Shown here: positions 27,783 through 31,490 of the stretch, in pieces | Layout: each line of letters opens with the position of its first letter | Position numbering within the stretch: the first letter of the stretch is position 1 | Origin: a virus | Taxonomy: Duplodnaviria; Heunggongvirae; Uroviricota; Caudoviricetes | IMG/VR virus record: IMGVR_UViG_2563366840_000012 | Span: 1 to 31,949 of that record | Strand: one strand, 5' to 3' | DNA length: 31,949 nucleotides | Translations under genes and position numbers: made by a program | Notes under the pieces: model-generated | Told to the model about the DNA's origin: nothing | Databases searched by the model: none | Seen by the model: only the letters and a program-made list of their open reading frames with translations

Positions 27783-29141
<1,359 letters not shown>

Positions 29142-29191: not shown

Positions 29192-29265
29192 ACAATGGAG
29201 TTTGTTTTTCATGCCCCTTTTTTACAATATTTCTTGTTTACAACATACAATCTTTCTTGTAATTT
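29192..29265 (+). promoter_or_regulatory. 434-type left operators (three sites) and pL
   Basis: ACAA-N6-TTGT sites at 29192-29205, 29224-29237 and 29247-29260; candidate -35 TTTACA (29237-29242) and -10 TAATTT (29260-29265) with 17-bp spacing. Confidence 0.75.
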
Positions 29266-29306
29266 TAAGCCATCAGCAGGACGCACTGACCACCATTGAA
29301 GGTGAT

Positions 29307-29336
29307 GCTCTTAAAAATTAAGCCCTGAAGAAGGGC
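29307..29336 (+). promoter_or_regulatory. nutL (boxA GCTCTTAA, boxB GCCCTGAAGAAGGGC)
   Basis: Exact lambda nutL boxB at 29322-29336 preceded by boxA-like TGCTCTTAAAAATTAA. Confidence 0.85.
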
Positions 29337-29494
29337 AGCATTCAAAGCAGAAGGCTTTGGGGTGTGTGATACGAAACGAAGCATTGGCCGGAAGTGCGAA
29401 TCCGGATTAGCTGCAAATGAGCCAATCGTGGGGTGTTTTCGTTCAGGACTACGACTCACACACACCACCAAAGCTAACTGACAAGAGAATCCAG

Positions 29495-29818
29495 ATGGAT
29501 GCACAAACACGCCGCCGCGAACGTCGCGCAGAGAAACAGGCTCAATGGAAAGCAGCAAATCCCCTGTTGGTTGGGGTAAGCGCAAAACCAGTTAACCGCC
29601 CTATTCTCTCGCTGAATCGCAAACCGAAATCACGAGTAGAAAGCGCACTGAATCCGATAGACCTTACGGTGCTGGCTGAATACCACGAACAGATTGAAAG
29701 CAACCTGCAACGTATTGAGCGCAAGAATCATCGAGTTTGGTATAGCAAGCCAAGTGAGTTCGGTATAACTTGTCAAGGAAGACAAAAGGTTAAAGGGAAA
29801 TCCATTCCATTGGCATGA
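29495..29818 (+). CDS. N: Antiterminator N
   Basis: MDAQTRRRERRAEKQAQWKAANPLLVGVSAKPVNRPILSLNRKPKSRVESALNPIDLTVLAEYHEQIESNLQRIERKN... matches lambda N, arginine-rich motif present; track ORF begins upstream at 29417. Confidence 0.95.
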   Translation: MDAQTRRRERRAEKQAQWKAANPLLVGVSAKPVNRPILSLNRKPKSRVESALNPIDLTVLAEYHEQIESNLQRIERKNHRVWYSKPSEFGITCQGRQKVKGKSIPLA

Positions 29819-29826
29819 GGTACGTA

Positions 29827-30696
29827 ATGAAGAAAATTGATTACAAGTCCATACCAAAACCAATAGACTCAGCATCAGAACGAAAAAAACACAAAAAAGA
29901 GGCTGAAAAATTAGCAAATTATATCAGTTTTATTAGAAACAATGCTCACGGCGATGGCGACAGGAAGTTGCTTTCAGATGCCCGGACCCAAGCGTTCAGT
30001 ATACTTCGTAAGCAGATGCAATATCGTCTTCATCCAGGCTACATAATTGAAATTCGCCCGACTGAAAGACAATTGTTCTTATTAAACTCTGTCTTTGACT
30101 TTGTAAACGTAGTTGGAGATCTTATCGACAGGTCTGTAGATAAGGCTCCTGATACAAATAGTTTTCTTCTAACAAATAAAGAATACTTATATGGTAAATT
30201 TGGTATAAACGGATGGCAAAAATATGTACGATTCTTACGTGCATTCGTTGATGCGTATAAAAATTCCGACATGATTTATACATATTTGCCTGGTGGTGAT
30301 AATTGTACGCTTTCGGCAGACAATAGAATATTCATACCTATACTTGGTCTTGGGCTGATTAATGCAGTAAATGAAAGAGATGTTATAATTGTTAAGCAGT
30401 GGCGAAAGCATGAGGGATATAGATATCTGCCATGCTTTGATATATTAAAAATACAGAATAAATTCTATGTAAAAATTAAATATAAAGAAGATGTTTTCTT
30501 CCTCAGAAAAAACAAAGATCTTTTACAAGAACTTTCTGGGACAATAGATGTCATCGTAGGTTCTAGGTTTATAAAAGAACTGAAAGAAAGCAGGTCTTTC
30601 TCTCGTGTAGAGATAAGCGAGTCAGAGTTATGGGGTATATCAAATAATCCTGTAAACCACGCTCACCAACGAAATCCAAACAAAAAGTGGTCATAA
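29827..30696 (+). CDS. Hypothetical AT-rich protein (~289 aa) fused downstream of N in the ral/sieB slot
   Basis: ATG 29827 with GAGG RBS 6 nt upstream (alternative ATG 29815 overlapping the N stop); markedly AT-rich; no family recognised. Confidence 0.6.
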   Translation: MKKIDYKSIPKPIDSASERKKHKKEAEKLANYISFIRNNAHGDGDRKLLSDARTQAFSILRKQMQYRLHPGYIIEIRPTERQLFLLNSVFDFVNVVGDLIDRSVDKAPDTNSFLLTNKEYLYGKFGINGWQKYVRFLRAFVDAYKNSDMIYTYLPGGDNCTLSADNRIFIPILGLGLINAVNERDVIIVKQWRKHEGYRYLPCFDILKIQNKFYVKIKYKEDVFFLRKNKDLLQELSGTIDVIVGSRFIKELKESRSFSRVEISESELWGISNNPVNHAHQRNPNKKWS

Positions 30697-30720
30697 CCCG
30701 CTCAGGCGGGTTTCATTTTC
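30697..30720 (+). terminator. Intrinsic terminator immediately after the AT-rich ORF
   Basis: CCCGCTCAGGCGGG hairpin followed by TTTCATTTT starting 1 nt after the stop codon. Confidence 0.65.
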
Positions 30721-30838
30721 ACGCAAACAACAGAATAAACACTGCACTGTGTATTCATTCCAACGAGTGAATACACGGAGCAATGTCGCTCGTAACTAAA
30801 CAGGAGTCGACTTGTTCTGATTATTGGAAATCTTCTTT

Positions 30839-30866
30839 GCCCTCCAGTGTGAGGGCGATTTTTTAT
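30839..30866 (+). terminator. Intrinsic terminator upstream of ea10
   Basis: GCCCTC-CAGTGT-GAGGGC hairpin followed by GATTTTTTA. Confidence 0.6.
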
Positions 30867-30884
30867 CTGTGAGGATATGAACAG

Positions 30885-31253
30885 ATGTCAAACATCAAAA
30901 AATACATCATTGATTACGACTGGAAAGCATCAATAGAAATTGAAATCGACCATGACGTAATGACAGAGGAAAAACTTCACCAGATTAATAATTTCTGGTC
31001 AGACTCTGAATACCGACTCAATAAACACGGCTCTTTATTAAATGCTGTATTAATCATGCTGGCGCAACATGCTCTGCTTATAGCAATTTCGAAAGACTTA
31101 AATGCATATGGTGTTGTTTGTGAGTTCGACTGGGATGATGGAAATGGTCAGGAAGGATGGCCTCCAATGGATGGTAGTGAAGGAATAAGAATTACCGATA
31201 TCGATACATCAGGAATATTTGATTCAGATGATATGACTATCAAGGCCGCCTGA
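30885..31253 (+). CDS. ea10: Ea10-like protein
   Basis: 122 aa, same length and position as lambda Ea10; acidic C-terminus; sequence matches my recollection of Ea10. Confidence 0.75.
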   Translation: MSNIKKYIIDYDWKASIEIEIDHDVMTEEKLHQINNFWSDSEYRLNKHGSLLNAVLIMLAQHALLIAISKDLNAYGVVCEFDWDDGNGQEGWPPMDGSEGIRITDIDTSGIFDSDDMTIKAA

Positions 31254-31276
31254 GTGCGGTTTTACCGCATACCAAT

Positions 31277-31299
31277 AACGCTTCACTCGAGGCGTTTTT
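31277..31299 (+). terminator. Possible terminator or RNA hairpin between ea10 and cIII
   Basis: AACGCTTC-ACTC-GAGGCGTT stem (one G-U pair) followed by TTTTCGTT. Confidence 0.4.
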
Positions 31300-31325
31300 C
31301 GTTATGTATAAATAAGGAGCACACC

Positions 31326-31490
31326 ATGCAATATGCCATTGCAGGGTGGCCTGTTGCTGGCTGCCCTTCCGAATCTTTACTTGAACGAATCACCCGTAAA
31401 TTACGTGACGGATGGAAACGCCTTATCGACATACTTAATCAGCCAGGAGTCCCAAAGAATGGATCAAACACTTATGGCTATCCAGACTAA
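31326..31490 (+). CDS. cIII: cIII (FtsH inhibitor)
   Basis: 54 aa [54 protein letters not shown] matches lambda cIII; AAGGAG RBS; track ORF is N-terminally overextended. Confidence 0.95.
   Translation: MQYAIAGWPVAGCPSESLLERITRKLRDGWKRLIDILNQPGVPKNGSNTYGYPD

Follow-up and report, generated by a model that had tools for sequence, protein, structure and literature searches.

We analysed a stretch of Caudoviricetes DNA of 31,949 nucleotides (nt; IMG/VR record IMGVR_UViG_2563366840_000012, positions 1 to 31,949, hereafter the window), which carries, directly after the gene for the antiterminator N, a gene for a protein of 289 amino acids (aa) at 29827..30696. The gene belongs to phrog_12139 and is found in phage 434 as CPT_434_48, annotated there as 'Nun C-terminal peptide-containing protein'. 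Its product ends in the segment with which Nun of phage HK022 plugs RNA polymerase, and its core is predicted to fold like the REC lobe of TnpB and Cas12 proteins. We propose, with roughly even confidence, that the gene encodes an immediate-early, two-module arrest factor of the Nun type in which a TnpB-like lobe has taken the place of the targeting peptide. The effector would be the disordered C-terminal tail, whose 14 residues are those of the polymerase-plugging segment of Nun. Targeting would fall to a folded domain of ~150 residues (WED plus REC, without a nuclease lobe) instead of the arginine-rich, boxB-binding peptide of Nun. By binding a particular nucleic acid, whether a motif in DNA or a structure in RNA or a hybrid, this domain would raise the local concentration of the tail at passing elongation complexes, which the tail would then lock. 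The product would be made immediately early on infection or induction and not in the repressed lysogen, as expected for a gene that comes after N (or putL) and ahead of the pL transcript's first terminator. It would act on the transcription of the host or of a competitor phage, the phage's own transcripts escaping either by not containing the target or through an N- or put-modified polymerase that is refractory. The gene and its protein segments, N, pL, nutL and the hairpins described below all lie on the + strand, which at the right end of the window is the leftward (pL) direction of lambda.

The Nun-type tail, VNHAHQRNPNKKWS, is encoded by 30652..30693 (aa 276-289) and is identical at 14 of 14 positions to residues 96-109, the C-terminus, of Nun from HK022 and O276 (BLASTP). 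The match of the protein to the Nun profile of PHROG (phrog_5632) falls on the same residues, and the matches to Nun by both methods are limited to them, with nothing resembling the region of Nun or N that binds boxB and no arginine-rich motif (ARM) at the N-terminus. In the structure of Kang et al. 2017, residues 87-109 are the sole ordered part of Nun in the elongation complex and contain all known determinants of arrest, namely N97, H98, H100, R102, K106, K107, W108 and the carboxylate of S109. The segment passes the zipper, lid and rudder of beta' to reach a pocket that has the hybrid on one side and the downstream DNA on the other. N97, H98 and H100 touch the rudder as well as RNA and template DNA, R102 forms a pair with the carboxylate of S109, and K106, K107 and W108 contact nucleic acid; the rpoC substitutions R322H, D264G and D329G give resistance to Nun (Kang et al. 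2017). According to a review, this short segment is enough for arrest. All determinants from N97 to S109 are present in the 289-aa protein, with the free C-terminus one residue past the Trp.

In relatives of 42-68% identity the V, N, H, A, H, R, K, K and W of the tail are invariant, and across four aligned relatives the only determinant that varies is the final Ser, which one of them (P0003) lacks. In the window lineage a recombination joint lies at 30651, inside the tail-coding sequence, where DNA identity to HK022 and O276 starts, and the tail could for this reason be taken for a functionless relic of mosaic recombination. We find such a relic scarcely credible and rejected it, since the relatives at 68, 49 and 42% identity keep the motif with different codons (GTA/GTT/GTG, AAC/AAT, GCT/GCG/GCC, CGA/AGA, AAA/AAG) and with 3' flanks that differ from that of the window, and an independent cluster, P0007, keeps it too. 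Because the motif persists in these relatives despite the synonymous changes, the tail is held by purifying selection; the ratio of nonsynonymous to synonymous substitution rates against the 434 allele is 0.20, gene-wide. The tail is preceded by a predicted disordered linker (30601..30651, aa 259-275; predicted local distance difference test score, pLDDT, below 50 over residues 260-281), as would be needed by a peptide that must enter the polymerase in extended form.

A profile search with the 40-aa motif returned only small Nun-like proteins and no third architecture. These proteins (P0044-P0049) have 45-70 aa, share the tail consensus MH[KR]VVNHAHQR[ND]P[KR]KKW[S] and come from Raoultella, Photorhabdus and metagenomes, those of Raoultella and Photorhabdus being annotated 'transcriptional regulator'; P0045 and P0048, both from metagenomes, have an arginine-rich N-terminus. 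Since they have the same tail consensus, the Nun-type tail occurs on two architectures, and the Nun family reaches beyond phages of E. coli.

The 289-aa protein and Nun (P18683) share the 14 C-terminal residues, and their genes occupy the same locus at the start of the pL operon. Where the phage is of the put type, nun and the 289-aa-type gene are positional alternatives with a common 3' flank, and in the window the sequence from 30651 on is 99.4% identical to the 3' flank of nun. With locus, tail and 3' flank shared, the comparison suggests that the two are evolutionary alternatives, one derived from the other in either direction. Nun, however, has 109 aa, is intrinsically disordered, carries an N-terminal ARM aimed at lambda boxB RNA and acts from the lysogen from its own promoter, whereas the 289-aa protein has a folded core (residues 10-225), neither the ARM nor the H93/R94 of Nun, and no evident promoter of its own. 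Moreover, its gene co-exists with a lambda-type N/nut system, so the nut complexes of lambda cannot be its target.

The gene starts at ATG 29827 and has its stop codon at 30694-30696; its homologues, phrog_12139 and the phage 434 annotation all start at this Met. The stop codon of N (TGA, 29816-29818) leaves a gap of 8 nt. The ribosome-binding site GAGG (29817-20) and the start codon together span 29817..29829, and a second possible start, ATG 29815, shares bases with the stop of N in the sequence ATGA. The close spacing suggests that the gene is co-translated with N. A hairpin followed by an interrupted T-tract, resembling an intrinsic terminator, is found at 30695..30720 (stem 30695-30712, then TCATTTTC) and is predicted to be the first terminator of the pL transcript, equivalent to tL1. 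A scan that gave 6 terminator-like sites, against 2.2 in shuffled sequences, found none on the + strand between pL and 30695. Lying upstream of the first terminator, the gene should be co-transcribed with N without antitermination. A consensus scan for promoters upstream of the gene returned no usable one, the sole match straddling the start codon.

Other loci have the same layout. In three of them (L003, L006 and L049) the gene begins 1-8 nt 3' of a lambda-type N (1 nt in L003 and L049, 8 nt in L006). Two HK022-type phages have no N: in L004 (2875-4007) a 290-aa gene sits at the nun locus, where pL is followed by a putL ~95% identical to that of HK022, the gene and a terminator, and L050 has the same arrangement; in both, the next open reading frame (ORF) is only 46 nt away. 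A hairpin and T-run within a few nt of the stop codon are found in L003, L004 and L006 as well, and at all these loci the gene is followed by a terminator. The unit of antitermination device, gene and first terminator is thus conserved. The pair of N and the 289-aa gene occurs with varied immunity regions and downstream genes and, to judge from these loci, moves as a unit among lambdoid backgrounds. A prophage of E. coli ECO3183 (L011) has a 100% identical copy of the gene at 1744-2649 together with another repressor; its rex/hex slot is filled by a 'BstA C-terminal domain-containing protein', and the genes downstream are not the same.

This strict linkage to an antitermination device, which is putL in L004 and L050 and N in the window and the other three loci (L003, L006 and L049), would also fit the same arrest chemistry being aimed at the phage's own transcription. 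The protein would then be an immediate-early negative regulator or timer that arrests pL and pR complexes (or convergent complexes of the pRM, pRE or oop type) lacking the N or put modification, and so sharpens the early-phase switch. Co-transcription and probable co-translation with N, and the known competition of Nun and N at the same complexes, agree with such a role. The protein, however, lacks an ARM and does not resemble the region with which Nun or N binds boxB, one protein family stands beside two unrelated antitermination systems, N/nut and put, and lambda lives without the gene; we regard self-regulation as unlikely.

The folded body of the protein was modelled with AlphaFold from an alignment of 23 sequences (A2; model m207c49e951e7), a model from a 5-sequence alignment with a pLDDT of 52 having been set aside. 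The mean pLDDT is 80.8, with values above 85-95 over residues 10-225. The model begins with a Lys-rich pair of long helices (29872..30021, aa 16-65, pLDDT 83-96), which is specific to the phage clade and missing from most distant relatives. It continues, within the segment 30037..30486 (aa 71-220), with a strand (71-77), three to four helices (80-145) and five to six strands with one helix (152-219); two to three weaker helices and then the disordered tail follow residue 219. A Foldseek search of the PDB with the model placed Cas12 proteins in the top nine, with weak E-values of 0.01-0.17, and a fold search of BFVD placed giant-virus 'transposase' entries, which we take to be of the TnpB/Fanzor type, at ranks 1, 4 and 5. 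The matches cover 130-157 residues in the order strand, helices, strands. In the published structure of TnpB, the REC lobe consists of a WED oligonucleotide/oligosaccharide-binding barrel (residues 1-12 and 117-176) into which REC (13-116) is inserted behind beta1; this lobe clamps the duplex of the transposon-adjacent motif (TAM). On this comparison the core of the 289-aa protein is predicted to be a WED beta-barrel with a helical REC inserted after beta1, the segment 30037..30486 containing WED beta1, the inserted helices and the remaining WED strands. We claim a TnpB-like fold and not membership of the family, because the sequence-level tests for TnpB, given below, were all negative. The best local match to TnpB (DNRIFIPILG against NSRIFLPKLG) was not significant. 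The sequence-only reading made earlier of this DNA had recognised no known family in the protein, a view overturned by a C-terminus that is the arrest peptide of HK022 Nun and a body with a predicted TnpB/Cas12-like fold.

The likeness to TnpB and Cas12 (ISDra2 TnpB, 8H1J; RdCas12n, 9UDI) thus lies in the predicted WED barrel with its REC insertion, the lobe that binds the duplex of the TAM or of the protospacer-adjacent motif. In contrast to these proteins, the 289-aa protein lacks RuvC, TNB, the zinc finger and detectable sequence similarity, and its gene has neither transposon ends nor an evident conserved non-coding RNA beside it. It ends 69 residues past the WED-like strands, with helices and the disordered tail in place of the nuclease lobe, and nothing in the AlphaFold model corresponds to RuvC with its D-E-D triad or to the TNB/zinc finger. 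The closest analogue derived from TnpB is offered by TldRs, TnpB-like nuclease-dead repressors of which many are encoded by prophages and which likewise use a TnpB-derived fold to control transcription in temperate phages; some are C-terminally truncated, as described in the TldR paper. TldRs, however, keep most of the TnpB fold and its RNA-binding interface, are recognisable by sequence, have an adjacent guide RNA and work by occupying promoters, whereas the 289-aa protein is without the whole nuclease (NUC) lobe, has no evident guide RNA and would place a Nun-type plug on the elongating polymerase.

As to a guide RNA, no Rfam family matched near the gene. The flanks are not conserved across loci, being 46 nt in L004 and L050 and spacers of 22-35 nt in the BREX-associated clade described below, and the 3' spacer of the window is common to nun-bearing phages and lambda. 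Rfam, folding of the 3' spacer and comparison of the flanks, with guides inside the coding sequence outside their scope, gave no conserved non-coding element specific to the gene.

Beyond the phage clade, clusters P0011-P0041 contain proteins of 213-326 aa that are 14-25% identical to the phage protein. They share core motifs (L-x-P-x3-Q-x3-L-x3-F, FLL-x-NK, CSIS and RY-x3-F) and a conserved S-x-S-Y-S-R-V-D-F segment, and their tail is a different, basic one (...G-R-x-V-x-GGLPSLGKRR). Three separate clusters (P0031, P0035 and P0036) are encoded between brxC and pglX in operons of the type BrxA-BrxB-BrxC-X-PglX of the bacteriophage exclusion (BREX) system, with homologues at L007 7001-7831, L009 7001-7867, L010 4390-5256 and L014 7001-7867. 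Other distant relatives adjoin genes of the NYN, RelA-SpoT, PLD or MZB kind, helicases, or TrfA and ParB plasmid functions, and one Neisseria copy stands among housekeeping genes. No PADLOC or NCBIfam model matches these proteins, so the homologue between brxC and pglX looks like an undescribed BREX-associated component; the BREX operons of E. coli are not known to include it. The window gene and its close family sit in phage pL operons and not in brxABC-pglX operons. The distant relatives therefore place the recognition module in mobile-element and defence contexts and do not by that define the role of the phage protein.

The homologues in BREX operons, the other defence-like and plasmid neighbourhoods of the distant relatives, and an immediate-early timing suited to counter-defence would fit a protein whose functional part is the TnpB-like module. 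That module would act in anti-defence, as a decoy or dominant-negative form of the BREX-embedded homologues, with the tail an accessory anchor or dispensable. We hold this to be distinctly unlikely. The BREX clade is only 14-25% identical and has other tails, PADLOC gave no match, E. coli BREX is not known to have such a component, and the invariance of the Nun tail under selection in the phage clade argues that the tail is essential. Anti-defence of this kind is the nearest surviving form of the counter-defence role put forward by the sequence-only reading. As for its idea of anti-restriction, nothing points to restriction alleviation, and the 289-aa protein has no match to Ral, SieB or a PADLOC model.

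The protein family is rare: a word-indexed search of 5.8 billion proteins found only five clusters, and 27 came out of 1.8 billion representatives searched exhaustively with HMMER. Within E. coli the gene occurs in 93 of the 5426 complete genomes (~1.7%); every copy is chromosomal, and every one is listed as a hypothetical protein. The phage 434 protein (UMO75312) is 97% identical to that of the window, and phrog_12139, whose function is listed as unknown, matches at full length (E = 5.8e-204; all 289 profile positions, 1-289, align with residues 5-293 when the protein is read as 293 aa). The ORF has a G+C content of 34.9% (30.0% in its first 100 nt, and 30% at third codon positions), against 48.1% for N, 47.8% for the whole window and 37.9% for ea10, and is compositionally foreign. 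The contrast with flanks of about 50% that had been drawn before holds for the ~30% at the 5' end and for the upstream side only, because ea10 downstream has 37.9%. In the same way, the earlier description of the gene as horizontally acquired cargo replacing ral/sieB is right as to the slot and the foreign G+C but not as to novelty, since the gene is resident in phage 434 and in ~1.7% of complete E. coli genomes.

The ral/sieB position that has been taken over and the low G+C would be compatible with unrelated AT-rich cargo, alleviating restriction like Ral or excluding other phages like SieB or abortive-infection (Abi) systems, without involving RNA polymerase. With Ral and SieB the gene shares the interval from N to ea10 and the class of accessory, non-essential early-left genes. 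In lambda, ral and sieB lie downstream of tL1, whereas the 289-aa gene lies upstream of the first terminator and bears no sequence or family relation to them. Scans of the protein against the Ral and SieB families of Pfam, PHROG, NCBIfam and PADLOC were negative, as were scans of the protein and 10-23 relatives against all of Pfam, NCBIfam and PADLOC. No membrane segment or catalytic motif was seen in the alignment, the model or the family scans, no dedicated predictor having been run. The protein thus resembles neither Ral nor SieB nor any model of defence or anti-defence, the conserved features point to the polymerase, and we judge a function of this kind highly improbable. The protein may still have a role in exclusion, through transcription as opposed to a SieB-like or Abi mechanism.

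Several observations weigh against a targeted arrest factor of the Nun type. As to the fold, no member of the family (23 tested) matched Pfam at E<=1, hmmsearch against the PDB gave 0 matches at E<=10, hhalign against E. coli InsQ gave a probability of 0.2%, and shuffle-controlled pairwise alignments to TnpB gave z values of ~0-2. As to the tail, H93 and R94, which in the 87-95 stretch of Nun contact upstream DNA, have no counterpart, the aligned ...WGISNNP being unconserved within the family, and R94A strongly weakens the binding of Nun to the polymerase. This suggests a tail of lower intrinsic affinity that relies on delivery by the rest of the protein. As to the biology, Nun acts from the lysogen; the 289-aa gene has no evident promoter of its own, so its biological setting must differ from that of Nun. 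An arrest factor expressed from the strong pL promoter beside N could harm the phage itself, and the means of self-protection proposed above are conjecture. Among prophage copies sampled in IMG/VR, roughly one in four is frameshifted, and copies interrupted by IS1 also occur; the gene is for this reason dispensable in resident prophages. Lastly, the genome announcement of phage 434 does not discuss the gene. The frameshifted copies in IMG/VR (L042-L045) measure 866 or 868 nt, and H54, from E. coli Res13-Lact-PEB20-37-A, is among the frameshifted or IS1-interrupted ones.

The surroundings of the gene are those of phage 434. Positions 29400-31300 are 97.6% identical to authentic phage 434 (OL657226/7; megablast). 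Lambda and most other lambdoid phages match in N and ea10 only, with ral/sieB in between, and the lambda DNA match jumps over the entire 289-aa ORF. The 434 cI repressor gene (28108-28740) is followed 3' by the hex slot (28665-29141), whose longest ORF has its start within cI, at 28665; the start in the 434 record overlaps the cI stop (~28737), and according to that record the published hex start is wrong. The pL promoter region (29236..29272, with -35 TTGTTT, -10 TAATTT, a start at ~29272 and overlapping 434 oL operators) was transferred from the annotated 434 record, which is 97.6% identical here, and its coordinates are approximate to +/-1 nt. The boxB hairpin of nutL, GCCCTGAAGAAGGGC, was read in the sequence at 29322..29336 and corresponds to a nutL stem-loop annotated in phage 434. 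N itself (29495..29818, 107 aa, beginning MDAQTRRRERR) is in the ORF list and is annotated as N in 434, lambda and RefSeq E. coli.

Downstream of the gene, a second terminator at 30837..30866 (stem 30837-30858, then TTTTTT) precedes ea10; it is annotated in 434 and named tL2a in O276. Between the two terminators lies a long imperfect hairpin with 22-nt arms (30739..30786), whose core is the 9-bp repeat GTGTATTCA/TGAATACAC. It has no T-tract and stands in sequence common to lambda and HK022, being therefore not specific to the 289-aa gene. The spacer 30690-30884 as a whole folds into three hairpins (z = -6.1 against shuffles) and is common to phages without the gene, from 30651 on in HK022 and O276 and from ~30725 in lambda; it probably belongs to the tL2 terminator cluster. 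Most of what the sequence-only reading had described in this region stands. This includes the start, GAGG and ATGA overlap of the ORF, the lack of a tL1-like terminator between N and the ORF, the hairpin with U-tract after its stop, the terminator before ea10, now identified as tL2a, and the inverted repeat, now the core of a longer hairpin. Its inference that the ORF, upstream of the first terminator, would be immediate-early and N-independent is supported by the terminator scan and the conserved arrangement.

Beyond ea10 (30885-31253) follow cIII, kil and gam, and the known cIII thermoregulator RNA (Rfam Lambda_thermo, 31313-31371, 88.5 bits) is intact. The remaining window, with the virion genes, is P22-like and closest to CUS-3, Kapi1 and vB_EcoP-720R6 (~95% identity for the virion and late genes at 1-24000). 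Because P22-like virion genes are joined to a 434-type early-left region, the element is a mosaic prophage with 434-type immunity. A tRNA gene (1009-1080) adjoins a 404-aa ORF (1209-2423) at the presumed prophage end.

A more far-reaching version of the proposal, which we consider very unlikely, would make the protein the nuclease-free remnant of a TnpB-type DNA binder, directed by RNA or the TAM, which lambdoid phages re-armed with a polymerase plug. It would be a sequence-programmed roadblock to elongation, unlike TldR or dCas12, which control transcription by occluding promoters. Nun would then have been derived from the longer gene by a swap of the TnpB-like module, at the same locus, for an N-type arginine-rich motif, and the BREX relatives would use the same module with the GGLPSLGKRR tail to couple target sensing to BREX. 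An RNA-guided arrest factor is in any case of low probability.

The presence of the Nun peptide is already recorded in the GenBank annotation of phage 434. In the searchable literature we found no description of the conservation of the tail under selection, of the linkage to N or put, of the nuclease-free REC-lobe fold or of the BREX-embedded relatives. To our knowledge, no natural protein other than Nun has so far been described that halts RNA polymerase during elongation by pushing a peptide into its cleft. A second architecture with the same peptide, present in a textbook phage such as 434 and in ~1.7% of complete E. coli genomes, would show the plug to be portable, a module which different targeting domains can aim, and it makes a specific proposal for how Nun arose. 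It would also add a TnpB-derived fold without the entire nuclease lobe and link this fold to BREX operons, where the uncharacterised component encoded between brxC and pglX could be relevant to target recognition by BREX.

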